Positions 1,625 through 41,469 of a stretch of DNA of 64,000 bases are shown here, piece by piece (position 1 is the first letter of the stretch; each line of letters begins with the position of its first letter). The stretch is from a virus. The stretch lies in IMG/VR virus record IMGVR_UViG_3300040786_000030, positions 24,281 to 88,280 of that record; one strand, 5' to 3'. The notes below the pieces were generated by a model. The model was given only the letters and a program-made list of their open reading frames with translations, made no database searches and was not told where the DNA came from. The translations under genes were made by a program, and so were the position numbers.

Positions 1625-3468
1625 ATGTCACATTTATTAACAAGTGGAATGGTTGGAAATATTGGTATGAACCATATGAAAGTTATTCGTTTAGAAACCC
1701 AATCAAAATGGGATTCATTAGGTTTCTTGGAAGGTCTTAAAGGACACGTAAAAGAAAATATCGCTCAATTATATGAAAACCAAGCGTCAACATTATTAAG
1801 CGAATCTACAACTGCTAACAATTCAGGTTCTTTCGAAACTGTTGTTTTCCCAATTGTACGTAGAGTATTCTCTAAATTATTAGCTAACGATATCGTATCT
1901 GTACAAGCTATGAACATGCCAATTGGTAAATTGTTCTTCTTCGTTCCACAAACTTCATCACGTGTTGATGCATTGGGTGTAATGGGTAACAACTATGCTG
2001 CTAATGGTGGAGATGGTGCTTATGGTACTACATATTCTGCACACACAGGATTAAATGGTTTACACAATGGTGTACCAACTGCTGCTGCATTGCCAGTTGC
2101 TTCAACTAAAGCTAATCAGCCTATTACTCAAATGCAAGCTAAAAACTTGTACGATGCGTTCTACAATGATGGTTTATTTGATAACTCTAAAGGTACAATG
2201 ACTATTATGGCTGACCCAGCTCCAACTAAATGGGCTTTAGGGAATGATGGTCAATATACTCAAATAACTAATGGTACTACAGTATTAGCTACTGCAACTG
2301 ATGGTTCTGTTAGACAAATTATCTTAGGTGTTTCTGGTTTTTCTGCTGGTCTTACAACCAATGGTAGAGAAGTTATGACAGGTGCTGATGGTAACCAAAT
2401 GGATACTGAATCATTCTTAGCTTCACTTCACGTATTGACTACTAATGATATTAAAGATAGAGATGGTAATACTATTGTTGCTGCTGGTAAAGAAGTTCCT
2501 TTCAGACTTGTTACTCAACAATATGGTAAAGGTATCGTATCTGGTTCTAAATCATTAACTGATGCTACAGGTGTTTGTTACTTAGGATTAGATATTACTC
2601 ACCCTGTTGGAAATGCTGGTGTTGCGTCTTATGATGGTTATATTGGAGCTTCTGCTACAACTGCATCTGCATTCACTTTCACAGCTGCTTGGGCTAACTA
2701 TGCAACATTAGAACTTGAAACTGAAATGGGAGAAGTATCTTCAAATTAGATGAGGTTGTTGTATCTGTTGAAGAAAGAAAATTACGTGCTACTTGGTCTC
2801 CAGAGCTTGCTCAAGACGTTAGTGCATTCCATAACATCGATGCTGAAGCTGAATTAACTGCAATGTTATCAGAACAAGTTGCTGCTGAAATTGACCGTGA
2901 AATCCTTAGAGATATCCGTAAAGCTGCTGCATGGCAATTGAGATGGGATTATAATGGATGGAGAAAAGCTGCAACTTCAGCTAACCCATACACGCAAAAA
3001 AGAATGGAACCAAACTTTAATTACTAAAGTTAACCAAACTTCAGCACAAATCCACAAATCTACTCTTAGAGGTGGTGCTAACTTTATCGTAGTTTCTTCT
3101 GAAATCTCTGCTATCTTTGATGATTTAGAATACTTCCACGTAAGTGATGCTAACCCAGAACAAGATAGTTATAACATGGGTATTGAAAGAATCGGTTCAT
3201 TGAGTGGACGTTACCAAGTGTACCGTGACCCTTATGCTCCAGCTACTCTATCATCGTTGGACACAAAGGAAAATCATTGTTAGACACTGGGTATATCTAT
3301 GCTCCATACGTGCCATTGCAATTGACTCCAACAATGTACAACCCATTTAACTTTGCGCCAGTTAAAGGAATTATGACAAGATACGCTAAAAAAGTTGTTA
3401 ACAATAGATTCTACGGTCACGTAAGAGTTGATGGTGTTGTAACTTTCGATATGAACGAATTAAGATAA
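1625..3468 (+). CDS. gp23: Major capsid protein (T4 gp23-like) with a large insertion domain, three indels
   Basis: Motifs RRVFSKLLANDIVSVQAMNMPIGKLF, RKLRATWSPELAQD, EIDREI, YAPYVPL and GIMTRYA. Indels are near 2742, 3001 and 3246. Confidence 0.95.
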
Positions 3469-11674: not shown

Positions 11675-12627
11675 CTATAAACCATGTTGTTTTAACACTT
11701 CGTATAAATCTTTAAACCTTTTCATAGATAGTCGAATATCTTTAGTTGACAAGTTGGTATAATTTCTCATTGTTTCTAAAACCGAATTTTTATTATATTT
11801 AGAACCACCTTCCATAGATTGAAAAGCCCTTTCCCAATTTTCTAAAATTTCAACCAATGCATAACCAACTTTTTTCTCATTCTCATTTAACCTCTTTTTT
11901 GTTGGTAAATTAACATCTTCTAACTCTGTTTTAATACCATCAGATATTTTTTTAATAAATGCATCCATAGAAACTCGTCATCATCAATATAATATATTAA
12001 ATCATCACGTTCTTCAATGTATGAAGAAATATCTTCATACGATGAATTTTGTTTCATATATTTTCGTCTTTAATTAAAAGACCTAGTATATAATTTTTAC
12101 ATATTGTTCCAAAATAAGAATACGCTTTTTTATTTAAAGTAGGTTTAAATTTATGTACTTTAGTCATTAAAAATGATACAGTATCACCATGAAGTTCTTC
12201 GAATGTCTCACCTTTTCTATATAACTTATAACGTCTAATAATCGCCTCTATCATTTTATCTAACGGGGCTTTTAACCATTCGTTAAAATGGTGTTTCTCA
12301 ATATATCGTCACTTATGATAACATTAGCGCCTACGATATCTTCCACTGACATTATATCTAAAGACGTATCAGTTAAGTTTGATGTTAAAATATCAATATC
12401 AATTGTTATAAATTTACTATCGGTACCATACCAGTTTTCATTTGGTATGGTATAACTACCACTAACAACAACGTCTTTACCTAATTTATGGGTAATCGTT
12501 ATATGTTTATTAGCAATTAAATCGACAGTCTCTACATATCTAGAACTTAAAAATTTTATTACAGCTTCTTCCTCGTTTGGACCAAAGTACATTTCATTTG
12601 TTCTTTTCGTCCTCGTTTATTAACCAT
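11675..12627 (-). CDS. Late-transcription sigma factor (T4 gp55-like) with an N-terminal insertion, indel-split
   Basis: ELHGDTVSFLMTKVHKFKPTLNKKAYSYFGTICKNY aligns by eye with the sigma region 2 pattern of gp55 (F-D/K-P-x-K-x-x-A-x-x-Y-F). The N-terminus reads YFGPNEEEAV. Confidence 0.7.
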
Positions 12628-13415
12628 TTATACATTTTGAGCTTCATATGTTATTTTTCTATCATTAGAAGTAATATTCTTTTTAGCAACACTTAACCAC
12701 CATTTAGCCTCAATCGGGTCCATATTAGTTCTATAATTTGCGAATAGTGATTCTTCTCTTTGGTTTACGTGTTTATACCCAAATCTAGGGATTACCATAA
12801 CTTTAACATCTTTGAATGTCATACGTAATAGAATTCATAAATAAATGTCAATTTAATACTAGGTTTAAACCCACCATTTTCCTCATAAACTGATTTTCTA
12901 ATTACCATACCATCGGTGTTGAAATTTTGATATGTTAATAAAGCATTATTGTCTAAGATACCTAATTCATCTGAAAACTAGCAGCCCATACAGCTTCATT
13001 TGTAAAACCAACAAATTGGTTTTGATTATCAACATCAACAATGATTGGCATGAAGATATCAATATTCTCATGTGCTTTTGATAGGTGATAACGTTTTTAA
13101 TCAAATATTTGCAAGCTCATCATCAAATTCTAATACACTAACCCATTCTGTTTTCGCAACACTAACACCGTAATTAACTTGCGATGCAAAATCGGTTAAA
13201 CCTGGATTAGAAGCAACAGTAACAGTGTAATCACCATAATCAAAACCTAACACGTATTTTTCTACTTCACTATCTTTAGGTACCACAATAATTAAATTAT
13301 CTGGTCTAGTATTCTGAGTTTTAACACTTTCTACTGCGTTAAAAAAATAATTTTTTGTCTCATCGTTCAATTCGTGAACAGGAAGTATAACACTAATATT
13401 ATTTAATTCTTTCAT
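12628..13415 (-). CDS. Glycosyltransferase, GT2/GT-A fold, indel-split
   Basis: ISVILPVH, AVESVKTQ, NYGVSVAKTEWVSVLEFDD (DxD-type). Confidence 0.8.
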
Positions 13416-13433
13416 ATTTTTTTTATTTATTTG

Positions 13434-13834
13434 TTAATTTCTAAATTTTTATTAAAGTTTACAAAATCAGAAATTTCTTCTAGATTTTAAACCATTTACC
13501 ACCATTTTCTTTAACCATATTACCAACCATATCTAAAGATTTTATTTGATGTTTGTTAAATTCTTTACCATCATCATCTAGTAGATACGTGAAAATTGTT
13601 TTTCTGGTCGTTTATTCGAATCGTCAATTAGTTCAGCTATTGAGTAAACACCTTCCATTTTGGTGTGATTACATATAATACATAATCACAGTTTTACGTT
13701 GTTTTATTTCTTCTTTCTGTGCATTATCATCCCAGTCACTAACAACTGGATTAAAATACTCTATTTTAATTTTTTTATTAAAATATCTCGCCAATCAGAT
13801 TTATTAGTAGTTCCACCTAAGAATATTTTTTCAT
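13434..13834 (-). CDS. Nucleoside 2-deoxyribosyltransferase-like protein
   Basis: Reconstructed MKKIFLGGT...SDWRD...IEYFNPVVSDW...CDYVLYVITPKMEGVYSIAEL, typical of the Nuc_deoxyri_tr2-like family. It is TAATG-coupled to the upstream GT. Confidence 0.7.
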
Positions 13835-14985
13835 TAAATCTCAATAGTTTTAACTTCGGTAGTTGCAAGTTCATCACTAGTTAATTTTAACATGTGTTCA
13901 AATTCAGCGATTCTATTACCTACTAACGCACCATAGACAGTATTTAAAGTTTCTTTTGTTTTTCCGATGTATATTGACCTTTACTTTCACCCATTTGTTT
14001 TAATAGTTCAGCTGGTACAGCATCTTCTAACCATACTTTTAAATATGTTGCGATTAATTCTGGGATATTAAGTGTTGTGTTTGTCCAAATACCATTATTT
14101 TAATAGCTGTTTGTCCTTCTTCATTAACAGTTTCCATCCATTCTGGAATTAAGTTAGGAATTTTACCAATAATTGAGTATCACACTCTAACGCTTCAATT
14201 GGAAAAGTTCCAAAACCTGAAACATCATCAACCCATACAGCCAAACAAGATTTACTTAACTCAGTTGCGAAATCAGGTCTAGATAACCCTCTTAATTCTT
14301 TAAATGTAACCCATTTATAAGCTGGATATTGTAAATAAAATGATTTAGCAATTTTAGCTGCATCACCTTGTGTTCTAGTGTGTACCGCAACAATTGGTAA
14401 TTTAGGTTTATCACTAGACTTAAAATAATCTGGTATCGATACAGGCACTAAATGTACATTTATAGATGGGAAAAGATTATGAATATATTGAGCTTGTTTA
14501 GCACTAGTCGTTATCACATCATTGAATCCGTAATCAACATTCCATCTTTTACCAACTGGTAATAATTCTAATAAATAATCATAACTTTGAGATAGAACAA
14601 TTTTTCTACATGGAAAACTTTAACTTGGTCCATAATGTTTGAAAAAATTTCTGGTATAATGATAAAATCAGCTGGTCCAACATTTAACCCTTCACCCTCA
14701 ATTGAAGCGTGTGGTAAATTAGCGTATTCTTCGCCTAACCATTCATTGATACCATTAGCATTTTCATCACCAATACGTTGATAATCATTTTTCATGTAAG
14801 ATAGTTGCATTGTAACCTAACTCATTAAGTAACTTTACATGCTCATAAATATTTGCAATACCAGCAGTAGGGTTACCCTTAGTATCTAAAGTAAAAAATA
14901 CATTTTAAATTCTTTATTATTTAAAACAGCTAAAGTATTTTCAATTTGTTTTTTTGTTCTTCCATTTGTTTTTTTGTTCTTCCAT
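13834..14985 (-). CDS. Glycosyltransferase, GT-B (GT4-like), indel-split
   Basis: GNPTAGIANIYEHVKLLNELGY, IIIPEI, VWVDDVSGFGTFPIEALEC (E-x7-E-like signature). Confidence 0.75.
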
Positions 14986-15032
14986 TTTTTATTTATTAAT
15001 TTTATTAACTCTTATATAAGTTTGTATTTTTA

Positions 15033-15380
15033 TTATTTTCCTTTTATTATTCCATACTCATAAAGTGTATTGAAAGCTATTTTAAATGATAATGAAGATT
15101 TTTCTAACCCCATTTCCGCACCTAATGTTTCATCAATTTCTTCTGTAACATCTAATACAACATCTAACATTGTTCTAAGTATATCGTATTTTGCCGCATT
15201 AACCTCTCTAATTCTTTCTGTCATAATCTCATTAACCTCTATACTAATTATATTGGTATTTTCATCTAGATATGTTTTTTTGTGTATTTCAACTACTTTA
15301 GTTTCATCTAATTTTGCACTAATAATATTTTCTAACACGTCAATATCTATACTATATATTATACCACCAAATTCTATCAT
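15033..15380 (-). CDS. Hypothetical protein
   Basis: Intact 115-aa ORF inside the operon. Confidence 0.6.
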   Translation of the reverse strand: MIEFGGIIYSIDIDVLENIISAKLDETKVVEIHKKTYLDENTNIISIEVNEIMTERIREVNAAKYDILRTMLDVVLDVTEEIDETLGAEMGLEKSSLSFKIAFNTLYEYGIIKGK

Positions 15381-15384
15381 ATTT

Positions 15385-15983
15385 TTAAATTTCTTCGTAA
15401 CTTGTTATTTTTGTATTTAATATTTTGTTTCTAAATTCTTCATTTTTCATAAATTCTAAAAGTGAATCTATTTCATAGTCAGCTGAAACATTTTTATTGT
15501 AAGATGCGTTAACTTTAATACTTATTTTACCTTCAGGTTTTGACTCTAAAGCTTTAGGATTGGCAGTTATTAAGACATCTATACCATCCCATTTTTTAGC
15601 GTAATCTGTAACAAATCTAATATTTTCAATTTTACACCCAGTTTTGGATAGAAAGAAGAAAGTTGAGGGATTGCTTTTCAACCTCTCGACTAACTAACTC
15701 TATTTGGTGTTCTTCTTCATCTTTAATTTCACCTAAAATATATTAAAATGGTTAATTAAACCATCTGATAATTGGTCAGCATGTCCGAAAATTTCTAATG
15801 ATGCTTCAGTATAAAGAAACATATTAAGCTTATCAATATTTTCAAATTTAAAAATTCTAATAAATTAAAATTTGTAACATCACCCTCTTTGATATTACTA
15901 TCAGCGATATATTTATCGTAAGTGTACGTTATTTGACCAATGTAGTCCCTTAAAACCTCGTTAATGCTAATTCCTATCTTCAT
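15385..15983 (-). CDS. 5'(3')-deoxyribonucleotidase-like HAD-fold protein with degenerate motif I, indel-split
   Basis: MKIGISINEVLRD (the canonical motif is xDxDGVLxD), STFFFLSK, DVLITANP and KVNASYN resemble the NT5C family. Confidence 0.55.
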
Positions 15984-16092
15984 ATAACCAATTTAATGGT
16001 TATATGAGTATAAGTAAAGAAAAGAAATGATTTTTTTAAAAATAGATAAAAATTTGTCTTTAAAGGTTTTTCTTCTATAATAATGGGTGTGA

Positions 16093-16891
16093 TTATTTTT
16101 TATCTTTTACAACTATAGGTGTTGCATCTAATCTTGGGTAATTAGCGATAATTTTTTTAATTATTGGGTTTCTAACAATATCAGCATCGCTAAACACAAC
16201 AAATCCAATATCTGTAATGTTTTTATGTCTAGTCATAGCATCATATAAACCACTTTTAGTGTAATCTCTATATTTATCTGATTGGTCTAAATCACCAGAA
16301 ATGATAAATTTACTATGTTCACCAATACGTGTTAAGAGTGTTTTCATTTGGGCTGGACTCATATTTTGAGCTTCTTCCATTATTAATATTGTATTATCAA
16401 TTGATTTACCCCTAATGTAGGCCAATGCTTGTACTTCTAACACCCCAATTTCCTCTAGTTTAAGTCTATTTGTTTTACCGATAAGTTTATCGAATATATC
16501 TAACGACGACGATAGATAAGGGTCCATTTTCTCACGCATATCACCAGGTAGGAAACCTAATTTTCATCTGCTTCAACTATCGGTGTTGATATGATAATTT
16601 TATTAAATTTATTATCATCACTTCTAAGTAATTCAATAGCCCTAGCTATTGACACGTATGATTTACCAACACCAGCGGCACCAGCAGATATAATAATCTC
16701 TTTACCATTAATAGCGATGATTAAATCTTTTGTGTTTTAGTTTTGCATTTAAAATCATGCATAGCTAACATATTTTTTTAAATCTACAACACCTTTAGGT
16801 TTTGACACTTGAAGATTGTTGTCATTCTTTTATCTTTAGTCGTTTTCGTAGTACCAGTTTTAGATACAGAATTTGTAGCTTTTTTTATCAT
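16093..16891 (-). CDS. phoH: PhoH-like protein, indel-split
   Basis: GAAGVGKSY (Walker A), LGFLPGDMREKMDPY, YIRGKSIDNTILIMEEAQN, LTRIG, GDLDQSD. Confidence 0.92.
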
Positions 16892-16892
16892 A

Positions 16893-17881
16893 TTATTTAA
16901 TTCGTTTACTAATTATTTCATCCCAACTATCAACCATGTCATCCATTAAAGTTTCAAACGTATATTCTGGTTTCCAACCCAATGTTTCTCTAATCTTTGT
17001 TGAGTCACCTTTAAGGTATTTTAATTCTTCTGGTCGCATAAACTTAGGATTTTGTGTAACATAATCCCTATAATCCATACCTAATCTTTTAAACACATAA
17101 TCAACCATTTCTCTAACTGAATGTGTAGTCATTGTAGATACTACAAAATCTTCAGGTTCAGTGTGGTTTATCATTAAATGCATAGCTTTAACATAGTCTT
17201 TTGAATGACCCCAATCTCTATAAGAGTCCATATTACCTAATTCTAATTTATCAGTAATACCATATTTAATTTCAACAGCTGTTTTAACCACTTTATTTGT
17301 TACAAAATTAGATGCACGTCTTGGTGATTCATGATTAAATAATATACCATTACACGCATGTAATTTATAGGCGTTTCTATAATGTCTAACAATATTATAT
17401 CCAAATACTTTAGAACAACCATAAGGGCTTACTGGTGACATAGCTGTACTTTCTCTTTGAAAACCATCTTCATCAACAGAGTTTCCAAACATTTCAGACG
17501 AACTAGCTTGATAAAATTTAGCAGTAGGGCAAGAACGTCTATAAGCTTCTAATATGTTCAACACACCAATTGCGTTAGTTTGAACGGTAAATTGTGGAAC
17601 ATCAAAACTAATCCTAACATGACTTTGCGCTGCTAAGTTATAAATTTCATCTGGTTGAATATCATCCAATAATCTCTCTAAACAACCTTGGTCTAATAAG
17701 TCACCATAGTATATATTTAGATTATCTCTGGTTTCATCACCTAATCTACTTTGTTGGTTTTCAGAAACTGAGTTTCTTCTTACTATACCATGTACTTCGT
17801 AACCTAATGATATTAAATATTCTGCCAAGTATGACCCATCTTGACCATTGATACCTGTAATAAATGCTTTTTTCTTTTCAT
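16893..17881 (-). CDS. gmd: GDP-mannose 4,6-dehydratase
   Basis: AFITGINGQDGSYLAEYL, YNLAAQSHVRISF, YQASSSEMFG, PVSPYGCSK, GILFNHESPRR, RDWGHSKDYV. Confidence 0.97.
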
Positions 17882-17924
17882 ATTTTAATTTACTAATTAA
17901 TTTTAGAAAAGTAAATTCTTTCCA

Positions 17925-18626
17925 TTATTTTTCTACATCAACATACGTTTTACTATTACCAGTATCTGGATTAATGTCTGGAACTGTATCGATTATTATA
18001 ATACCTCTAGCCGCATCTTCTGGTGTCATATACATATGGTAACCAAGCATTTGGACATGGTTTTCATCGGTATATGGGAGATTTAAGTCTCTACCATCGT
18101 AAGATGCCATTTTAAGCCATTTATACGCCTCAAAATCATCAGTTAATATAATACCACCCTTCCAATCGGTATCCTTTTTTTTATTTGAAATGAAACTACT
18201 TGTAAAGCGTCAAGACCAACATACATATCTTTGGTCCATCTAACAGCACCATCCCAAACTCTAGAACCTTTTAATTGATAGACACCTGACCATTCTAAGT
18301 CTTCAAAGGTTACTTTATTACCAGCGTTTATAATTTGCATAGGTGCTGACACATAAGTCATTTTAGGTATTTCAAGTTCAACACTTGTATTTAATTCGCC
18401 AATATGTTGCAAATATTTTAAAGATAAAAATAAACCATGTGAACAACAATCGATACTTACAGCATATTTACTACCAGCAAATTTAGCGACTTTTCTTCAA
18501 ACATATTTATAACATCTCTTGGGTCTGACCAATTATACCCTAATTCTTTTAATCTATCTAATTCTGGTCGTTGTAACTCTTAGGTACTTGTCCTAGTGGC
18601 CAACTTGTGTATTTTACTTCTTTCAT
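17925..18626 (-). CDS. DegT/DnrJ/EryC1/StrS-family PLP-dependent sugar aminotransferase (short form), indel-split
   Basis: KYAVSIDCCSHGLFL, PKMTYVSAP, VSFQIKKRIPIGKGG (SFxxxK Schiff-base Lys), GYHMYMT. Confidence 0.8.
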
Positions 18627-19425
18627 TTTATATAATTTTCAAATATGTAATCTTCAGCAACTGGCATATTGATAACCCTGTTGTAATTATCATTTATTGC
18701 GTCAATTTTATTATAATATAATTCAGGTGTTAAGTCATTGATATTAAAATTTTCATTCAACATTATAATACCATCCATATTAAAAACATCACCAATCATA
18801 TCAGTACCATAATAAATTGGTATGGTCCCTGTGGCAAAACAATCGCTTATTTTTTCACTATACGCTAGTGGGTATGTATGATTTTCCATAGTTATTGAAA
18901 ATGGTAATCTTTAAGCCCTATTTCTTTATTCTTAATTTCATTGTAACCACGACCAAAAAAGGTCAATTTTATCACGATATTTATCTATAATTGTTTGTCT
19001 ATATAAGTGTTCTTGACACATAATTTTATTTGATGCAATCATAGATATTAATTTACTCTTAGTGTGAACACCAATATCTGTAACCCAAGGTTTTGCACTA
19101 CAAGTAACTAACTTAAATTTAGGTGATAATTTTAATAATTCAGTATCGTGAGTAAATAGTAACCTATAGTTATCCTCTAAATATTTTACATTAAATACAC
19201 ACCATTGGTATAATGATAAGTTTATAGTTTTGATTCAGATAACCAAGCATAATTTATCTTTGATTTATCTGGAATAATTTCCATAACTCCATAATCAATA
19301 TGTATAGATATATCAGCAGAATTAGAGCCTTTAATCCACTCAATTTCTTTTGGGATACTTCCAGATGATGAACATACATCATGTTGAAATCCACCACCTA
19401 CCATATTTATTTTTACTTTACTCAT
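18623..19425 (-). CDS. GT10-family (alpha-1,3/4-fucosyltransferase-like) glycosyltransferase, indel-split
   Basis: Reconstructed KDYHFSITMENHTYPLAYSEKISDCFATGTIPIYYG matches the GT10 motif. Confidence 0.8.
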
Positions 19426-19943
19426 TCTGGTTTAATAATATTACCATATTTAATTATATTTTCTTTCTCACGATATTTTACAAATACAGCTGGAGTTCCA
19501 ACATATACACCCCAAGGTTCAGTGTCTTTAGTTACAACTGAATTAACACCAATTGTAGACCCTTCACCTATCGTAACCCCAGGCATAATAACACAATTAA
19601 CCCCAATACAAGCATACTTACCAATCGTTACCGTGGTAAATTTTGTTTCTTTATATTCTAAAGGTATTTGTGGGTTTGTCATCCCTTAGTAAAATCATCA
19701 CTACCACAAATAATTTTTGAACCAGCAGCTACACCACTAAAATCACCCATAACTAATTTTGAATTAACCCCACCTATTATACAAACGTATGGTGCTATAT
19801 GTACATAATCACCAATAATTGCTTCAGTAGCTAAATATACTCCAACATCTATAGCTACATGGTCACCAACCTCAACTAAATGTGGTTGTTTAATTTGTGC
19901 ATTATCCGCAACAAATAAATCTATACCTTCTTTTAAATACCAT
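19422..19943 (-). CDS. Hexapeptide-repeat (LbH) sugar acyltransferase, indel-split
   Basis: VEVGDHVAID, IIGDYVHIAPY, VTIGKYACIGVNCVIMPGVTIGEGSTIGVNSVV, WGVYVGTPA. Confidence 0.88.
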
Positions 19944-19944
19944 A

Positions 19945-20595
19945 TTATAATAATCCTCCGCTAATATTTATATTTTGACCTGTTATGTATTCTGTTTCAA
20001 TTAAAAATCAATTGTTTTATATAGTTCAACTATATCACCAAACGTTTTAACCCTATTGATTCTTTTATTGTTTCTGCAAATTTAATTGGTAATTTGTTTG
20101 TCATACCACCATCGAAATAACCTAACTGTAAACTGTTACAAGTAATATTTTTAGATATGTTTTCAGCGCTAACCATTTTCGTTATACTATCAGTAAATGT
20201 TTTACTTGCACTATATAAACCAGTACCTAAAGTTACCTTTTCAGCTAAGACAGATGAAATTAGTATTATTCTACCATATTTTTGCTCTCTCATTTTTATC
20301 AATGCATTAGTAACAACATTAATACAACCCTTGATATTAACATCAATTATTTTATCAATTTCAGATATGCTATTTTCATCTAATTTATGTATAAATGAGT
20401 TAAAATTATATCCAGATAAATTAATAACAATATCAATATCGTTAGACTCAAAAAAATATTTAACATCATTAAAATTAGTAATATTAACCATTTTGAGGAT
20501 GGACTAACAACATTATATTTATCTTTTAATAATGGTATTAATTTTTCACCTAAACCACCACGCCCACCGAATAACCCTATTGTTTTCTTTTCCAT
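19945..20595 (-). CDS. Short-chain dehydrogenase/reductase, indel-split
   Basis: GGRGGLGEKL Rossmann motif, INLSG, DVNIKG, GRIILISS, YSASK (YxxxK), GYFDGGMT. Confidence 0.88.
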
Positions 20596-20597
20596 GC

Positions 20598-21015
20598 TTA
20601 ATCTTTATTTAAAAATACCTTATCTAATTTTGACCCTCATAAGGTCCAGTTTTATACTCATAAACAATAGTATCATCTTCTAAAATTTGATATGTATGTC
20701 CACCATATAAAGTGAAACTAGCATCACCAGCTTTTAATATTGGTGTTGCTATTATACTATCATCAATATCGTAGAAAATACATTTAACACTACCCTTAAT
20801 TACAACCCAAGACTCTTGAGCTATTTGTGCTGGGTAAGTTCGTTCTTTAGTAATGTGTTTATGAGGTGGAAAAGTTTACCCTTTTCCATTTTTTAACGTT
20901 GCACATTGAATAAAGTTATCTTCTGGTACCATTTCGGTTCTACCATTTATTTCATCTAGTCTATTAATTATGTGTAATAGTTTTCCTTCTTCAATTTTAG
21001 AATATATTTTTTCAT
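20598..21015 (-). CDS. Cupin-fold protein (sugar isomerase-like)
   Basis: Reconstructed FPPHKH...ESWVVIKGSV...LKAGDASF...GGHTY...EYKTGPY, a two-motif cupin. Confidence 0.7.
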
Positions 21016-21018
21016 AGT

Positions 21019-21812
21019 TTATAATTTAATCCAATTGTCTGGTAACACATCAACTGCGTTAAAAGTTATTGATGGTCCGAACCATATTTTAGGTCCAACC
21101 ACTATTTTATTTTCATTTTGGTTCATTATTGCAGCCCATAATGAAACGATGAATTAGCAATAATATTATTATCACACATACCCATCAAGTATATCTCAAT
21201 ATAATCTTTTCACTATCTATGTAAATAGGGTTTATAAAATTAAAATTATCTTTACACCACTCTATATCATCACTAAAAATTATAAATTTATCAGTGTCTT
21301 TTTTAATATTTCGATAGCCTCATTATAATAATCCATTGATAACATCGGATGATGATTTGGTAGTTTAGCATAATCACCACGTCTAATGTGTATAGAAGTA
21401 GTTCTCTCCTTTAAAATTTCACCATATTTTTTTAGTTATATGGGTTTGGATTGATTTTGGTATTTTAAGGAATTCATTGATTTGTAACTTATTATGACCA
21501 AAATATTTCTCATTGAAAAACCCATCAATATAAAATTCATCATTTGGTGTTTCTGAAACTTGATACTCAAAGGGTAACGTATTACTGGTAATTGTTGTGT
21601 CGGTTGTGTGTATCTTAATCTAGAAAACATTTCTTGATATTCAAAACTATGTTTTAATCTTGGGTTATAATAATCGTCCGAATCCATAAGATTATATTGA
21701 TAAATCAAATTAGGAAACTACAACCAACACCTAAGTCAATCGCCATGGATTTTGTTGTTGCTATCTGGAAAAGCATATTAGCTAATCCACCTTTTAAATT
21801 ACAATATATCAT
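21019..21812 (-). CDS. GT11-family (alpha-1,2-fucosyltransferase-like) glycosyltransferase, indel-split
   Basis: Reconstructed GGLANMLFQIA, SIHIRRGDY, YYNEA, IIFSDDIEWCK, NIIANSSFSLWAA: all canonical GT11 motifs. Confidence 0.9.
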
Positions 21813-22584
21813 TACTTAATTTGCTATACCTATTACCGTTATTTTTTATATAGTTACCATATATCATCGCATTATCAATACTTTTATTATGTTCATTTGT
21901 AGGTAACTCATTATTATATACATAAAGAACCTCATTAAGAAAATATGATTTTCATTACCACACATTTCAATAAATGGAATAAAAAGCCGCATCACCAGCA
22001 TATGTGTAATATGAACCATCAACAAATGGGTCCATCATATCCGTTTTATTTAATTTTTTATATAAAAATGCTTTAGAAGTTCTAAAATGAGTTACTGACC
22101 AATAATTTCTGTTATTATATATAACATCATCTGATGGTAATGACCTAGATTGTCCAATATTACCATTGGTGTTTCTATGTTGTGACCAAACTAACCATTT
22201 ATTTTCCGTATCATATACATATGATATTCTATTCACAGCTTTACTATTTGATAGTCTATCGTCTCCATCTACAACTGCAATGATTGAGTTATCATCTGAG
22301 GTATAGTTAATGACACTATCATACGTATTACCAATTGGGTAAAATTTTGTGGTATTTCGAATATAGATAATGTCCTTACCATTAAATTCAATTTTCCAAA
22401 AATCACCACTCATACCAAAAAAAATCGTTAATTATGGTATTAGTACCATCAGTTGATATGTCATCCCTGATTATCACACTAAATCATCAAAATCTTGACT
22501 AATTATAGATGACAGACATTCTACAATTAAATCTTTTGCATTATATACTGGTACTATTATTATAAATTTATTATCTAATTTCAT
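21809..22584 (-). CDS. Glycosyltransferase, GT2/GT-A fold, indel-split
   Basis: IIIVPVYNAKDLIVECLSSI, RDDISTDG, IAVVDGDDRL. Confidence 0.85.
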
Positions 22585-23535
22585 TTCTTTTCTTTAGTTC
22601 TATATCTTTCTTCTAAATCAAGTTGTCTATGTTTAGCTAAAATATCTAAACCATTAATAATTGGCGTTGCGATAAATTTAATCACATAATACCATTAAAT
22701 TCGACTATTTTATCAAAAGATTTTATGTTATATTGGTATTGGTGATTATCATAAGCACCAATTGTTTTATCAGTTATAAAATGTACTTCGTCAATCTCTA
22801 AAATTGATGAACCATTTTTTAGACGTAATTGCTTTTTTAACTTCACTTAAAAATAACCTACTAGTTCTATTATACATGTCTGGATAGACACTAACATAAA
22901 ATTCTAATAGTTTTCAGTGTCATTAATAGTCCTAACATTAAGTTTAGTGGTATAATTCTCTAAATTAAATTGTCTACTTAAATTACTAATAATTAATATT
23001 GGTCTTTCAGTTTTACTACTGGCAAAATATTCTTCACCATTAATCGTACCATGTGTCTTACTAATTGGTTTACCATAATCATCATAATTTATAATGGCAG
23101 TATTAGTTAAACTAATATACTCATTATCCATAGCCTCATTAGCACCAATAGTTATTTCATCATTATTAACAACTAATTCTAATTTGTAATCATCATAAGA
23201 ATCAACTTTAATACCTTTTAACCCTATTTTCTTATCAATTTTAGTAGTAAGTGTAATAGGGTACCATCAGCTTCATAACCAGTTATTTCAGCGGTAAACG
23301 ATTCACTGGCTTGCATAATTTTATATGTTCGCCATCTAAGGTCCATAACTTCTTGTGTTACCTCACCATTAACTAGCGAATCTAAAACTTGACCTTGAGT
23401 TAATCGTTGTGATTGTGTGATATTAGTGGACATAAGTTCACCTGTTTGAGATAAGGCATTTTTTCAACATTAGCAAATGCCATAGAAGCCGTTCCTGTTT
23501 TTTTTACCAATCAAGGATTTTTTAACCGCACTCAT
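22581..23535 (-). CDS. Conserved hypothetical protein of about 315 aa, indel-split
   Basis: Pieces 23224-23433 and 22904-23131 join; coupled at both ends to GT genes (TAATG and ATGA). Confidence 0.55.
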
Positions 23536-25170
23536 TATAATACTGATTTATAAATTTCCATTATTTGCTTACCTACAATATCACTTCTAAATTTATCAAC
23601 ATCTGTTGGTATTTCATTAAGGGTTTTATTTTTAATATTACCACTAGAATCAACATCATAAATCCATCCTTTTTTACCACATAACCAACCCTCAATTGTT
23701 GTTCTACCTAATAAAATACCAGCAGTTTCATCACATTGATGAATATATTTTTCAGTGTTAGATGTTGGTTCGAAATAAGTTACATGTTCTTGACCTTTAA
23801 TCCATATCATCTAGATACGTATCATTTTTTTTACCAACAATCCATAATTCTTCATTATTTTCTTTAGTAGTATTAACTAAATCTTGTATTGTATTTTTTC
23901 GTAAATAATCTATTGTACCAACAAACAATATTCTTTTTTTAACCCTATGTTGTTCAGGTCCTAATTTAAATCTAATATTATCGATAGGGTTGTAAACAAC
24001 TTCAACTAAATTTGAATCAACATTGAAATCATCAACAATATATTTTTTAATTTCAGGTCTAATAGCTATATATTTTTTAATTTCAGGTGTTAGTACTGGT
24101 TCTTCTAACGCAATAACCTCTGAATGTATAGTACAGACCATTGGAGTATTAGGGTAAAACGTAATAAATGTTCTGTTATTGGTTTATGATTTAAATGTAT
24201 TACATCGAAATTAACATCATTAACTTTATATAACGTATTAACAGCTGAAACAACGTCACCCTCTGTTGATTTTAATAACCATTTACCATCACCCAATTTA
24301 AACCAGGCGGTTCTTGTAAGTTAAACAAATTAATACCTAATTTCTTAGCAGAAGCGGCTAAAGGTAACCCAAGATTAGAACAAATACTAACATTGCAGTT
24401 TTCCTTTAATAATTGTTTAGCTAATTCAAACACATATAATTCAGAACCAGTATAACCGTTAAAATTTAAACACCCAATTAAGACATTTAATTTTTCACCC
24501 TTACGTAAAATCCTAGGTAAGGTCACAGGTAGATTATCTTTAAATTTTCAGAAAAAATAACTCTATTTTCTTCCCATTTTCATTAGTAACACCTATTGAC
24601 TGATGATTAACCTTAATTAGTGTAGTAACACCGATGACAACTTCTTTTAGGAAGTTTTCAAAACAAAAGTTACATCATAAAAATGGAACCCTCAACTTCT
24701 TCATTAAAGTTTGTTGCTATTTTTGTTTTATCAACAGCAAAGAAAAGCCCATCCACAGATACTACAGATTCTAATTCTTGACCTAAATCATTACTATAGG
24801 CTGATAACCAAGTTTTACCTTCATTAGTATGTTTAACTCTACCATACATTTTCTTAGGGTTTTCCCACCATCTACCATTACTTGGTAGGTACTTAGAACC
24901 AGCAACACCAATAATACCAAACGTTGGATTTTTTTCAAATTGTTTTAATAATTTAGAACCCCATTGTTTTGTTTCAATAGTTATATCATCATGACAGAAC
25001 ACCACAATATTAGTTTTAGCTTGTTCTAAGCCACGATTATAACATTTAGTTAATGATTCACCATTATTAATTATTTCTATCACATCTATGTGATTATGAA
25101 GCCCAGAAGACTTTTTTTAAGTGTTCTATATGTTCTGGGTTTGATTTTCTCGTGCAGTATACGACTGTTA
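23535..25170 (-). CDS. Probable two-domain glycosyltransferase (GT-A Glyco_tranf_2_5-like N-terminus plus GT-B C-terminus), indel-split
   Basis: YNRGLEQAKTNIVVFCHDDI, GIIGVAG and VDGLFFAV, followed by GYTGSELYVFELAK, VYNPID, LFVGTIDYLRK and GRTTIEGWLCG. A fusion versus two genes cannot be resolved because of indels. Confidence 0.7.
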
Positions 25171-25231
25171 TCATATTATATTTATTTTAAATAAAGATAC
25201 ACAAAAAATTTACATAGTAAAGTAGTTAAAC

Positions 25232-25260
25232 AAAAAAACCCACAATAAAGTGGGTCTTAA
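25232..25260 (-). terminator. Intrinsic terminator after dut
   Basis: acccac-aataaa-gtgggt hairpin with an A7 run (U-tract on the minus strand). Confidence 0.65.
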
Positions 25261-25321
25261 CGTTTTAGGGTTTTAAAATGTATTATTTTTATAGTAAGTT
25301 AATCTAACCCTAATTATTTTT

Positions 25322-25790
25322 ATTTAACTCCAGTACTACCAAATCCACCAGTACCACGTCCAGAATTTTCATCTAAGTTGATAACTTCTATTAGATTTAT
25401 TTTTGTTTGACTTAAAACTGAGGCAAAACTCCTTGTGCAATTCTATCACCTTTTCTACAATAAATGGTTCATCACCTAAATTTATTAGAATTACTTTAAT
25501 TTCACCACGATAATCAGCATCAATCGTACCAGGTGTGTTTAATACCGTAACACCATATTTAGCAGCCAAACCACTTCTAGGTCTAATTTGTATTTCATGA
25601 TTATCTGGTATGTTAAAAAATAAACCAGTTGGTATTATTTCTATTTTCATTGGTAAAATAGTTACAGACTCAAGTACGTTTGTTCTTAAATCAAACCCTG
25701 ATGAACCATTTGTTGCATATTCAGGGTTTTCATTAGTCGATTCATTTTTAATTGTAAATCCATTATTTATTTGCTTTTCATGTTTAACAG
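25322..25790 (-). CDS. dut: Trimeric dUTPase, indel-split
   Basis: [28 protein letters not shown] and a C-terminal [10 protein letters not shown]. Confidence 0.95.
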
Positions 25791-26322
25791 CAAATAAAGT
25801 TGCCATTTTAATAGGTCACCTAACATTGAGTTATGGTATTCTGCCATTTTATCATCTGTTTTATCAGAAAATGTAATAGCAGCAAATTCTTCCTCGCTTA
25901 ATTCAATACCATTAGCTAAGGCATAATATGCGCTTCTCTCACTAACACGCATTGATGTTAAGTTATCTATAAACTCATACATTTTACCTAAGTTATCACG
26001 ATGCCATTTTGACTCGCATGGTTTAAATGTTTTAGCTTTACCAATTTGGTGTAGAAAACAAACTTTTAATAAAGATATTTGGTCTACTCTTTCATTCTCT
26101 GGTAATGCAGTATTAAATTTAACAGCGTAAGATGCTACTCTTAATAAATGGTCAATTAAACCACCTGTAAATGCATTATTTAAACTTTCCATCGTCGATG
26201 CTGGCGCATTAATAAATTCCTCACCTAAAAACTCATTAGTTTTTCATTCATAAAACCTAACTTAGTCGCTGTTTCAAAATACTTTTAGTATTAGCTATTA
26301 TTTTTCCTTGTTCTAAAGACAT
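25790..26322 (-). CDS. HD-domain (YhaM-like) fold protein with a degenerate HD motif
   Basis: [10 protein letters not shown]...[10 protein letters not shown]: the canonical LHDIGK is changed to LHQIGK. Confidence 0.65.
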
Positions 26323-26355
26323 TTAATTAATTTATTATAATTTTGTTATTTTTTA

Positions 26356-26363
26356 CAAACTTA
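26356..26363 (-). promoter_or_regulatory. Bacteroidota-type -7 promoter element TAAGTTTG
   Basis: Matches TAnnTTTG; about 35 nt upstream of the HD/dut operon. Confidence 0.5.
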
Positions 26364-26394
26364 CAATATTTATTTTAATTAAATGGTTTTTTTA

Positions 26395-27612
26395 CTAATT
26401 AAATCTAAATATAATTTTCTTCGTTGCTCAGTAACGTTATTAATTGAGTAAGTATTTTAACTGTTTCGTGTAAATTATCTTGTAATGTTTTAACGATTTC
26501 TGGATTTTGTATTAATTTTTAATAGCACCATACCAATCTTTACCATTTTAGCTGTATCAACTAAAATACTATTAGCGGTTAAATCAAAACCACCACCAAA
26601 CACCAAAGAGTTTTTCAAGTCAATTTGATATGGTCCGAAATTCTGCGCAATAATAGCCTTATTATGGAAACCAGCTTCAATTACTTTTAATTGACTTTTA
26701 ACTTTATTAAAAATGTGTTCATCTAATGGAGCTAAAGAGATATCGAATAAGTTATAATTTAATGCGTATGTTGAAATTGGTTTTGTCCAAACTCTACGAT
26801 ATGGTTCATTAGCGATATCAGCATATTCTGTTTGTGTAAATTTCATCAAAAAATCTTTATATTCTGGGCTAATAGTTTTATAATCATCCGTAAATATTTT
26901 TTCATATTGATACCAAACACTTTCTTTAGGTGTAATGTTTCTAGTTGTTTGCTCATTTGTTTGCTCGTTAATCATTGTATGTGTTCCTCTAATATCAAAA
27001 CCACATAAAACGAATTGTACCTTGTCTAGTAAATTATCGTTTCTAAGACGACCAACAACACCGTTTAAAATTTCTAAATCTTTAAATGACTACTACCACC
27101 TAACCAACCTATTCTAACTCTTTCAGATTTTCTAAATTTGGTGTGAATTGTTTTCTGTTGGGTCTACAGCATTAGCTAATATAAACACATTTTTATTAAA
27201 TTTAGCTATTTCTTTTGCAAAAATATCTGTTGTTGTAGTAACATATTGTGCTGTTTTATGTTAGACAATATCTTAATATCTAAACCATTATTTTTAATTA
27301 AATAATAAGCTGGGTGGTGAATACCTGGTGACCAGTAATCATCTAAGTCCATTATAGATATAATCCCTAAATTTTTTAACCTTTCAGTTAATTTTCCATA
27401 TTATCATAATCACCAAGTGTTCTATGGTAATGGATAATATCATATTGTTTTAACCATTCATCATTATCAATTTGAGGTTCATAATCAACATCAACGTGAA
27501 ACTCATCTGGGTAATTATTTTCTAAAGCGATATGTGGTTTTGTAGAACGAAAGTAACTTACACCTGTACGGTCAGATGGTACAACTAATATTTTAATTTT
27601 TTTGTTTTCCAT
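26395..27612 (-). CDS. Glycosyltransferase, GT-B (GT4-like), indel-split
   Basis: KILVVPSDRTGVSYFR, IIDLDDYW, DISLAPL...FNKVKSQLKVIEAG...IIAQNFGPY. Confidence 0.8.
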
Positions 27613-27670
27613 GTTTTAACTTGTTTTATCTTATTTATAAAACAAAAAAAATAAGGAAATACTATATAAT

Positions 27671-27698
27671 AAAAAAGACCCGATTGGGTCTTTATTTT
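27671..27698. terminator. Intrinsic terminator
   Basis: aaagaccc-gatt-gggtcttt hairpin with A/T flanks, just after the stop at 27700. Confidence 0.75.
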
Positions 27699-27699
27699 G

Positions 27700-28287
27700 T
27701 TAAACTGTTTTTTCTTTGTAGTAATTTTACCTTCTTTGATTAATAAATTAATCGTTTTAGTAATTGCTGACTCAGTGAGTTTTTTCTCATAACTACTTTT
27801 TAGGAAATTCATTAAAGTCTCGTTCATAATCTCTTTTAATTCAGTTCGACTAATAGTGATTAAATCCGAATTATTTCTAGACTCACTTAATTGTTGTGGT
27901 TGTTGTTGTCTTTGTTGTGGTTGCCTTTTGGGTTTATTTCTTCAATATCTTCAGCTGAGAATGATGTACCCATAGATGGTTTATCTATCGGTCTATTTAT
28001 CATAGCCTCTTTAATATTTTGAGGTAGTTTAGATGCCATTATATGTTCCTTGAGAAATTTTGTAATGGTGCTGTACTACTTAATTGTTGGCTATGTTGTT
28101 CATAATTAGGTTCTCTTTCATCTCTTTCATTATAATGTTCAGTATTGTATGATTTTGTTTCGGAAACGTTTTGTCTACTACTACTACTCACACTAGGACT
28201 TATATCTTCAACTTTATTCATCACTTTTTTAGCATTAGCTAAAATGTTTTTAAGTGCTGATAAATTTACTGGTACTGGTTGTTCCAT
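27700..28287 (-). CDS. Hypothetical protein (Gln-rich linker), indel-split
   Basis: Pieces 28039-28287 and 27585-27827 join; the real stop is probably TAA at 27700. Confidence 0.55.
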
Positions 28288-28289
28288 AA

Positions 28290-28992
28290 TTATATTTTTA
28301 TTTCATCGTTATTTAAACCATCATCTGAAATTTCTTCTTCATCTGGTTCTTGTAATTGTAACCCTTGTTTAGGTTCTTGTAATTGTAACCCTTGTTTAGG
28401 TTGTGGTTTTAACTCTTGTTTAGGTTGTGGTTTTAACTCTTGCCTTTTTGATTTAAACCTTGTTGTTGTTGTTGGTAATCTCCACGTAAATTCGCCTCTT
28501 TATCTTTAATTGATTGTAATTCATCTGGTGTTTTTATTTTATTTTTACCACCTTGACTATAACTATAATTATAATCAGCCCATTTTACAGTATTAGCTAT
28601 ATTTTTAGAATCATTACCACCATCAGTCCTAGACTTAATACCAGGTTGGAAATATGCGACTTTAGTTATTTTAAAATTATTAATACCATCTAATCTAAAT
28701 TTTTTATATACATCATTCGGCATAACTAAACCATTTTTAGATAAAACCTAGCATCAATTAAATTACTACCACTAGTTGATACGTTTCGTTGGTTAACCTC
28801 TATAAATTGGTTAGAACGTTCACCCTTTGCATTAGTATAATTAATTTCAACTCTATAATGTTTACCTGGTTTATCTTTATCACCTAATAGTAATGTATCC
28901 ACCAAATTGGTAGATACACCTTCAGATATTTTATTAACCTGTTTTCTACTTTCTTCTAATATAACTTCTGCGTATAGATTGTAAAGTCTCAT
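28290..28992 (-). CDS. WYL-like domain protein with a Q/P/K-rich repeat tail, indel-split
   Basis: YRVEINY...ERS...IE...KKFRLDGINNF resembles the WYL FRxDRI signature. The N-terminus reads MRLYNLYAEVILEES. Confidence 0.45.
28345..28442 (-). repeat. Coding tandem repeats: 27 bp x2 (PKQGLQLQE) and 24 bp x2 (PKQELKPQ)
   Basis: ggttcttgtaattgtaacccttgttta at 28345 and 28372; ggttgtggttttaactcttg at 28399 and 28423. Confidence 0.9.
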
Positions 28993-28997
28993 TTTTT

Positions 28998-29409
28998 TTA
29001 AATAATTACTTGACCAATATTTAATGACATATTAGGTTGTGTAACTTGTACCAGCAATCGCTGTAGGTCCATAACCCCATGTTGCTGCGTTAAGTATTAT
29101 TTCTTGGTCTCTACCAGAACCAATAGAAATTGCTTGGTTACCGTTTTATCCCAATCACCACCAACACCACCATAATTATAAATGTCTAGAAATTGACCTG
29201 AACCTTTACCATGTATTGGTGAATTCTTATCAGATATCGCTCTAGTATGTGTTGCACCATATTGGTTTGTCGCATCTATATTATTATAAATATTTTAGGT
29301 AAAGTGTATTTCTAGCAGCTATAGCGGCTTTTCCAATGGTGATTGTTCACCGTTATAAATTGATGGCATAATTATAAATTTTGTTTTTATTATTGTTATT
29401 GTTATTCAT
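28998..29409 (-). CDS. Small Gly-rich putative virion protein, indel-split
   Basis: Reconstructed YGATHTRAISDKNSPIHGKGSGQFLD...WGYGP. Confidence 0.5.
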
Positions 29410-41462: not shown

Positions 41463-41469
41463 ATAAATA
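41463..41469 (-). promoter_or_regulatory. Putative late promoter core TATTTAT
   Basis: 15 nt upstream of the gp13-like ATG. Confidence 0.55.

Follow-up and report, generated by a model that had tools for sequence, protein, structure and literature searches.

The window analyzed here, a 64,000-nucleotide stretch covering bases 24281-88280 of the 193,180-bp IMG/VR virus record IMGVR_UViG_3300040786_000030 (GC content ~29%), carries a glycosylation island between positions 12,628 and 27,612. The island is composed of four lineage-core glycosyltransferase (GT) genes, A, E, T, and U, which occupy fixed positions, and a swappable cassette of sugar genes. We tentatively read it, at a little less than an even chance, as a two-tier cytoplasmic glycan-assembly locus whose acceptor would be the phage's own virion proteins. 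A phage-intrinsic acceptor is favored because the membrane steps of glycan export are absent in complete genomes of the lineage, the core GTs are conserved across environments, and the locus lies among virion genes. The product would then consist of a conserved core built by A (GT-B), E (GT-A plus GT-B), T (an Agt-like GT4), and U (GT2), and of a strain-specific outer part supplied by the cassette between E and the flanking genes X1 and PhoH. The enzymes would be made before the late genes from host-type promoters, and the glycan would be attached in the cytoplasm to fibers, capsid, or another particle protein.

Core and cassette were distinguished in two samples of relatives, namely 81 viral loci chosen through Gmd and an unbiased set of 30 loci with full flanks chosen through gene T. 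Among the T-chosen loci, the order PhoH-R-S-T-U-sigma was present in 28-30, X1 in 20, and E in at least 13. The slot between E and X1/PhoH is hypervariable, and its glycan genes differ by relative, with GT2s, a GT2-methyltransferase fusion, a TOD1/MUCI70-like GT, S-adenosylmethionine-dependent methyltransferases, a UDP-GlcNAc 2-epimerase, and NodZ-like enzymes among its contents. The initial annotation had described one self-contained island and named co-occurrence and synteny across jumbo phages as a check. A, E, T, and U came out of this comparison as core and the Gmd cassette was found in only 6 of the 30 loci (about a fifth), so that the single unit gives way to GT genes belonging to the core of the lineage and a sugar cassette that can be swapped, while the self-containment stands in that no export machinery was found. 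Within the Gmd-chosen loci, Gmd, a short DegT, and a cupin occur together in 71-72 of 81, and LbH, GT10, GT11, GT2, and FkbM are variably present. Alternative cassettes are located at L006:4563-8523, L119:1506-7236, and L147:3935-6457, and two NodZ-like (GT23-like) genes, a GDSL hydrolase, and a kinase-like gene were also seen in them.

Metagenomic homologues of gene A number more than 7800, and the 120 best are 68-99% identical to the copy in relative L005. Such strong conservation points to a conserved, phage-intrinsic acceptor.

Neither the initiating transferases Bac_transf (PF02397) and PNPT (PF00953) nor Wzx (PF01943), Wzy_C (PF04932), or ABC2_membrane (PF01061) were found in the record, four partial relatives, or five complete relatives, and a search for GtrA (PF04138) in the record and those four partial relatives found none either; the controls were positive. 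The complete relative G007, which has the Gmd cassette, was among the genomes searched. The initial annotation had seen no flippase, polymerase, GtrABC-like protein, or initiating transferase in the window, and this now extends to the record and the five complete relatives (for GtrA, to the record and the four partial ones). A trait of O-antigen or capsule type is present in that nucleotide-sugar genes and several peripheral GTs form one co-oriented block. Transmembrane helices are missing from all intact L004 and L006 orthologues of the window's island genes, in agreement with the earlier remark that the GT fragments showed none. An N-terminal hydrophobic segment was seen in one additional cassette gene of L006 that the window lacks, and the lone hydrophobic fragment in the window is an out-of-frame read-through.

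The major capsid protein (MCP) gene of the gp23 family lies at window 1829-3423, a gp5-like baseplate hub at 9121-8489, and fiber-like genes begin at ~30.4 kb; the island is therefore inside the virion-gene region, and with MCP, hub, sigma, and fiber genes mapped, its reported location between the late sigma factor and virion genes proved correct. The MCP is only ~36-43% identical to that of any isolate, the nearest being a Flavobacterium phage, Microcystis phage Mel-JY01, and RM378. Gene T led to further relatives, among them five genomes of 288-369 kb that are bounded by direct terminal repeats and rated 100% complete. The lineage, which is T4-like, uncultured, and abundant, is truly "jumbo", and the record may be less complete than the 87% given by CheckV. 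Membership in the moraphages, for all of which heat-shock (DnaK/HSP70) genes have been reported (PMC12619734), was rejected, as HSP70 (PF00012) was found neither in the record nor in seven relatives, of which five are complete. Megablast with the island as query gave no match in 50,697 phage records, and tblastn with T, U, and E likewise found nothing there, leaving these three genes with no cultured carrier in that collection.

The genes of the record, essential ones included, are all split into frame pieces of 40-150 codons, and the longest open frame across 193 kb is 444 aa. Stop-codon recoding was discarded as the cause, since no genetic code gives back long frames. The sequence is present in a public ice-metagenome run, for which an independently assembled Logan contig of ~90x depth exists. 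Over the 14.7 kb compared, the window differs from it by 14 substitutions and 100 one-base indels, which amounts to about one single-base indel per 150 bp, nearly all in A/T homopolymers. A/T runs of 5-7 contain 10 of the 12 listed indels, and seven listed indels (25112, 23802, 22815, 22417, 21427, 18955, and 12060) coincide with mapped frame breaks. The frame breaks are therefore homopolymer indel errors of the record, and the genes are to be read as intact in nature and not as pseudogenes. Any annotation of this record based on open reading frames (ORFs) will come out badly fragmented. Because of this fragmentation, genes were mapped via the intact, collinear relatives L004 (a 65-kb contig), L006, and L003, which had been found via Gmd; Pfam was run on the window fragments, and the remaining assignments were made through orthologues (Table 1).

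Eight GT domains in seven genes were mapped on one strand, which bears out the earlier count of at least seven, and the tight packing of the genes was confirmed in L004. The accessory enzymes fared unevenly: Gmd, DegT, and LbH were recovered, the DegT being short, the short-chain dehydrogenase/reductase (SDR) is FabG-like and not a sugar reductase, and the cupin is a language-model lead only.

The two genes previously called GT4-like, A and T, are without Pfam match, yet both are GT-B enzymes. Gene A matches the PHROG 7162 glycosyltransferase family at 7e-46, and although its structural model is of low confidence (pLDDT 61, pTM 0.62), the top 50 PDB fold matches are all GT-B (E ~1e-7, TM score 0.45-0.49); a profile search of gene A against PDB sequences returned nothing. 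Its homologues also occur in coliphages and Campylobacter phages. The profile of gene T matches PDB 8XSG (AmGGT, an Agt-family GT4) at 1.8e-16, the next generic GT4 following at only 4e-3, a difference that ties T specifically to the Agt/AmGGT GT4 subfamily. HHalign found no relation between A and T. In Actinobacillus, Agt elongates protein-linked glucose in the cytoplasm, and AmGGT acts on free oligosaccharides (PMC12159676).

Table 1. Features of the glycosylation island and its flanks in window coordinates; where a Pfam match was obtained on window fragments, its position and value are given
Feature	Position	Strand	Description	Evidence
Terminator	27674..27693	-	terminator-like (intrinsic) hairpin just upstream of gene A	
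Gene A	26391..27612	-	GT-B (GT4-like), lineage-core, frameshifted here	PHROG 7162, fold model; 58% identical to L004:1-927
Gene C	25770..26243	-	HD-domain phosphohydrolase (nucleotide metabolism); TAAGTTTG box upstream	weak PF01966 on orthologue L004:1649-2215
Gene D	25323..25806	-	dUTPase-family	orthologue PF00692, 1.6e-21
Operon head	25213..25258	-	terminator hairpin 25258-25235, then CTTTACTAT promoter-like box; head of E-to-Gmd operon	
Gene E	23538..25174	-	fused GT-A (Glyco_tranf_2_5) and GT-B (GT4), lineage-core, 5 frame pieces	window Glyco_tranf_2_5 GT-A 24673-25116, 3.8e-28; GT4 23800-24183, 6e-4
Gene X1	22584..23510	-	conserved, non-enzyme-like, beta-rich C-terminal domain	
Gene G	21867..22593	-	GT2, variable cassette	L004 orthologue PF00535, 5.6e-16; window GT2 21970-22431, weak
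Gene H	21022..21812	-	GT11 (alpha-1,2-fucosyltransferase family), HIRRGDY motif	orthologue PF01531, 4e-25; motif in the window letters themselves
Gene I	20627..21016	-	probable cupin, Gmd-DegT-cupin core module	84% identical to L004
SDR	20033..20604	-	classical SDR, FabG/acetoacetyl-CoA reductase-like	window adh_short 20033-20503, 1.3e-21
Gene K	19425..19960	-	LbH (hexapeptide) acyltransferase	window Hexapep 19425-19960
Gene L	18626..19425	-	GT10 (alpha-1,3-fucosyltransferase family) C-terminal domain	orthologue PF00852, 2.5e-6; ENHTYPLAYSEK in the window letters themselves
Gene M	17907..18611	-	short DegT-family aminotransferase (pyridoxal phosphate-dependent), catalytic Lys kept, abuts Gmd	window DegT 17928-18496, 8e-5
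Gene N	16893..17876	-	Gmd, GDP-mannose 4,6-dehydratase	window Gmd 16896-17924; 82% identical to L004 Gmd; PF16363, 1e-114 on orthologue
Gene P	16096..16754	-	PhoH-like ATPase, not glycan-related, conserved flank	
Two-box element	15984..16030	-	promoter-like CTTTACTTAT ... TTAAATTGG abutting gene R ATG	
Genes R, S	15036..15983	-	conserved unknowns heading R-S-T-U-sigma operon	
Gene T	13947..14898	-	GT-B/GT4 of Agt/AmGGT subfamily, lineage-core	
NDT-like	13483..13880	-	nucleoside 2-deoxyribosyltransferase-like gene, weak call	PF15891, 0.015-0.026 on two fragments
Gene U	12631..13415	-	GT2, lineage-core, directly upstream of sigma	window GT2 13104-13433, 1.6e-4
Gene V	11678..12616	-	gp55-like sigma factor (flank)	weak Sigma70_r2 on orthologue

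Several interleaved genes neither make nor transfer sugars, namely the HD, dUTPase, PhoH, X1, R, S, and nucleoside 2-deoxyribosyltransferase (NDT)-like genes. The last of these sits between T and U and is absent there from L004, L006, and L003. The X1/O family (also L006:539-1489 and L004:11036-11857) comprises proteins of ~300 aa with 730 metagenomic homologues, all hypothetical, and adjoins or lies within the cassette in the 20 T-chosen loci that have it. X1 has N-terminal helices and a confidently modeled beta-rich C-terminal domain, and neither Pfam nor PHROG gave a match. X1 was considered as a virion protein or acceptor; the fold similarities to tail-tube, Hcp, and neck proteins are weak (E >0.01) and the atlas lead is below 0.9, which makes this a lead and not evidence. 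Just upstream of the island, window 27588-29031 encodes low-complexity Gln/Pro/Lys-rich repeat proteins (QQQQ, PKQELKPQPKQ) with no family match. For the repeats of the fiber genes, a YadA-head identity, which would have linked them to NGT/Agt substrates, was without Pfam support and was dropped.

The cassette suggests a chemistry for the outer sugars. The record contains a single extended SDR, Gmd, and therefore no GDP-fucose synthase. The short DegT ends immediately before Gmd, and its best solved matches are GDP-perosamine synthases with the catalytic Lys aligned, at an E value of only 2e-4 and with about a third of the fold missing. The window copy is truncated (~217-243 aa) and belongs to a virus-wide family of truncated DegT proteins (window 17907-18611, L004:9218-9949, and 56 other loci) that mostly measure 196-260 aa versus ~370 aa. 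The cupin-like partner protein (135-150 aa) was found with Gmd in 71 of the 81 loci; its assignment comes from atlas feature leads to Cupin_2/WbuC (0.93-0.96, language model only), and a PDB sequence search with it returned only spurious matches to designed propellers. The LbH protein of gene K has its best PDB match in the 3VBI-3VBP series (1.4e-14), entries which we take to be AntD, the N-acyltransferase that modifies a 4-amino-4,6-dideoxy sugar with 3-hydroxyacyl-CoA in anthrose synthesis. The place of the FabG-like SDR is taken in L004 by an FkbM methyltransferase.

From these matches, Gmd would convert host GDP-mannose to GDP-4-keto-6-deoxymannose, which the truncated Lys-type DegT would aminate to a perosamine-like GDP-amino-dideoxyhexose, and the cupin may isomerize or epimerize the keto-sugar before amination. 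The AntD-like LbH protein would N-acylate the amino sugar, and the FabG-like reductase beside it would probably supply a 3-hydroxyacyl-CoA donor. The families GT10 and GT11 depend on GDP-sugars, as do the NodZ-like enzymes seen in L006, and this content is consistent with transfer of GDP-linked 6-deoxy sugars; the outer sugars would be added by GT2, GT10, and GT11, the latter two probably transferring the phage-made GDP-sugar or host GDP-fucose. Mini-DegT, cupin, and Gmd together may form a minimal, virus-specific route to GDP-amino sugars. In the known GDP-perosamine pathway (Gmd-Per-PerB) and in AntD, the likeness lies in Gmd, a Per-matching DegT with its Lys, and the LbH acyltransferase; the phage differs in an aminotransferase of 196-260 aa in most viral loci, against ~370 aa, and in adding a cupin.

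Promoter-like boxes bear on when the island is expressed. A TATTTATA box lies in sense orientation 19-45 nt upstream of many structural-gene starts, with sites at 214, 3534, 30366, 35154, 45687, 56383, 59327, 59788, and 62590 on the plus strand and at 41469, 29292, 11648, and 8102 on the minus strand. In some relatives it also stands before PhoH (in 11 of 56 upstream sequences), in relatives it is likewise seen before the gene that follows sigma, and it was never found before A, C, E, T, or sigma in their upstream sequences. It is a candidate late promoter and does not have the orientation of the T4 late box TATAAATA, which in sense orientation was not placed like a promoter and was set aside. 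The R-S-T-U-sigma operon is headed instead by a two-box element, TT[TG]AC-N15-21-TAnnTT[TG]G, present in 24 of 77 distinct upstream sequences versus 0.1 in shuffles, a count that shows conservation and is not an independent tally, as the 77 sequences are related. Upstream of R, where it takes the form TTTAC-N15-21-TAnnTTGG, only 6-7 nt separate the end of this element from the ATG, which implies that the mRNA has no leader or almost none, and some copies, the window's included, pair across the start (AACCA...TGGTT). The window has the same CTTTACTAT box after the terminator upstream of E, and all four HD-gene upstream sequences that were examined contain TAnnTTTG. Across the intergenic gaps of relatives, this motif was only weakly enriched overall (7 of 63), and a sigma-70 consensus scan gave 122 sites versus 127 expected, such a scan being uninformative in this AT-rich DNA. 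The boxes of the GT operons resemble primary-sigma promoters of Bacteroidota.

The sigma gene, whose product is needed before late transcription, directly follows T and U. Together with the host-type boxes and the missing TATTTATA, this placement indicates that expression of the GT operons is probably pre-late and driven by host-type promoters. Chlorovirus GTs are early genes, and pre-late timing would be compatible with virion modification, which it does not favor.

Attachment to virion proteins has to be weighed against other acceptors, and several points count against it. No acceptor protein was identified from the sequence, and an NGT/HMW1C (GT41) initiator (PF13844) is absent from the record and four partial relatives. 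The link of T to Agt names no protein acceptor, given that AmGGT acts on free oligosaccharides. Co-location with virion genes is seen, but the GT operon heads lack the TATTTATA box of the structural genes and carry host-type boxes instead, so that by promoter box the two do not appear to be co-regulated. GT2 and GT4 enzymes without transmembrane helices are normal in O-antigen pathways, so the phage enzymes might rely on carriers and exporters of the host, the assignments of the cupin and of the donor sugar derive from family membership only, and for analogous islands the published reading, offered as a proposal, favors modification of the host O-chain (PMC12801897, PMC7029224). That last view, applied here, would have phage GTs and GDP-sugars act on undecaprenyl-linked O-antigen, capsule, or glycoprotein intermediates that the host then exports, the effect being superinfection exclusion, or progeny not lost on debris, while a jumbo phage passes through its long latent period. 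Gmd, a Per-like aminotransferase, an N-acyltransferase, and GT2/GT4/GT10/GT11 are typical of O-antigen clusters, a hypervariable cassette amid conserved flanks resembles O-antigen loci, pre-late host-type promoters fit host takeover, and the islands of cyano- and pelagimyophages have as their standard interpretation in the literature a remodeling of this kind. With no priming, flippase, polymerase, ligase, or ABC exporter gene in the five complete relatives, however, every membrane step would have to be borrowed, and the four core GTs are conserved over thousands of contigs from varied environments, in which host intermediates would be expected to differ. The surface-converting phages known to us are temperate and use membrane proteins of the Gtr/Oac/Wzy type. 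We consider host envelope remodeling unlikely, though the likeliest of the rival readings.

DNA hypermodification, in which some of the GTs would glycosylate modified bases against restriction with the HD, dUTPase, and NDT-like proteins in the pathway, was the alternative named in the initial annotation. E is immediately preceded by the HD and dUTPase-family genes, to which it is directly coupled in most relatives, the NDT-like gene stands between T and U in the window, homologues of A are found in coliphages and Campylobacter phages, GT-B enzymes glucosylate T4 DNA, and diverse DNA glycans have been reported (Pyle et al. 2024, as described in a citing paper). Against this, the record and three complete relatives each have a single gene of the thymidylate synthase (TS) family, with LPPCH, GLPFNIASY (the Asn being dUMP-specific), GDTHLY, and an IKAP C-terminus, and no second copy; there is therefore no dCMP hydroxymethylase, which disfavors glycosylation of the 5-hydroxymethylcytosine type and weakens this alternative. 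These TS genes (G000:C1:8219-9496, L166, L167, and L168) have canonical active-site motifs and are enlarged by insertions to 343-443 aa versus 266 positions in the Pfam model. A search for Tet/JBP gave no match, and because its positive control was also silent it is uninformative. In L147, a GMP-reductase/IMPDH-family gene (PF00478, 1.4e-41; L147:1174-2166) lies between dUTPase and E, and L145 has an equal-length ORF of 330 aa at the same position (L145:1921-2913); HD and dUTPase therefore have the look of a nucleotide-metabolism module next to the GT genes. Eight GT domains, including GT10 and GT11, with an N-acyl amino-sugar pathway exceed any DNA glycan that we know to have been described, and we give this explanation only a slight chance. 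A somewhat better, though still small, chance falls to another cytoplasmic target, such as non-virion proteins or a free oligosaccharide or glycolipid, with altered host physiology or nucleotide-sugar depletion as the outcome. The use of free oligosaccharides by AmGGT, the closest solved relative of T, speaks for it, as do the lack of a recognizable protein-initiating GT such as NGT and the probably pre-late expression; the hypervariable outer cassette, on the other hand, suggests a glycan under selection from outside the cell, and we know of no such elaborate system with a cytoplasmic target in phages.

Virion glycosylation, which we prefer among these readings, has been proven for very few phages, and glycan islands of large aquatic phages are already known, so that the window adds one more, error-laden member. 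The islands of aquatic T4-like phages (cyanophages P-SSM2, S-SCSM1, and S-SCSM2R, and pelagimyophages; PMC12801897, PMC7029224) share a T4-like virion module, GT2/GT4/GT10/GT11 with Gmd, adjacency to tail fibers, and hypervariability, and in both cases the target is read from genes alone. They differ in that the present phage is of another lineage (by the MCP identity given above), its four GTs are core with only the middle variable, Gmd, mini-DegT, and cupin form a conserved sugar core, and export genes were searched for and are absent in complete genomes.

Chloroviruses (PBCV-1) and mimiviruses resemble this locus in Gmd-type enzymes, an aminotransferase, an N-acyltransferase, and soluble multi-domain cytoplasmic GTs. 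Their glycans have a conserved core with strain-specific decoration. They are eukaryotic viruses whose glycan has been shown on the particle, whereas here it is predicted from the genes alone. Among phages, virion O-glycosylation is attributed to mycobacteriophages Che8, Corndog, and Myrna (Freeman et al. 2023, as cited in PMC12619734), and two GTs are known from Xanthomonas jumbo phage XacN1, together with at least two glycosylated proteins of its virion (PMC5852040). The likeness there is in soluble phage GTs near virion genes and in glycosylated capsid, tail-tube, or other virion proteins; those phages have 1-4 GTs, encoded within the late structural operon, and lack an extensive sugar-nucleotide pathway, and no homology was detected, T, U, and E being without a tblastn match in the 50,697 phage records. 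Chloroviruses, mimiviruses, and some mycobacteriophages are precedents for a particle target, and XacN1 is probably another. The NGT/Agt system of Actinobacillus (PDB 8XSG; PMC12159676) offers a soluble Agt-family GT4 that elongates a terminal glucose or mannose, and differs in that no GT41 initiator was found in the phage record or in the four partial relatives.

Large aquatic phages commonly carry glycan islands, and annotation routinely labels these as lipopolysaccharide ("LPS") genes acting on the host. The present lineage is a clean test case: its complete genomes have no export route, its core GTs are strongly conserved, and the middle cassette alone varies. A bench test is not yet straightforward because no cultured phage in the searched collection has T, U, or E. 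We suggest as a conjecture, more doubtful than the choice of acceptor, that the lineage coats its particle with a two-tier glycan in swappable "glycotypes", in which the four core GTs would build the conserved inner part and the cassette product made with Gmd, truncated DegT, and cupin (a set widespread in viral contigs), a GDP-N-acyl-amino-dideoxyhexose, would be moved by GT10 and GT11. The mini-DegT/cupin/Gmd module would then be a compact route to rare GDP-amino sugars. If true, this would be a bacterial-virus counterpart of the chlorovirus capsid glycans, and a glycan on the particle would matter for the host range of a very abundant phage group, for its adsorption to particles and non-hosts, and for its grazing and decay.

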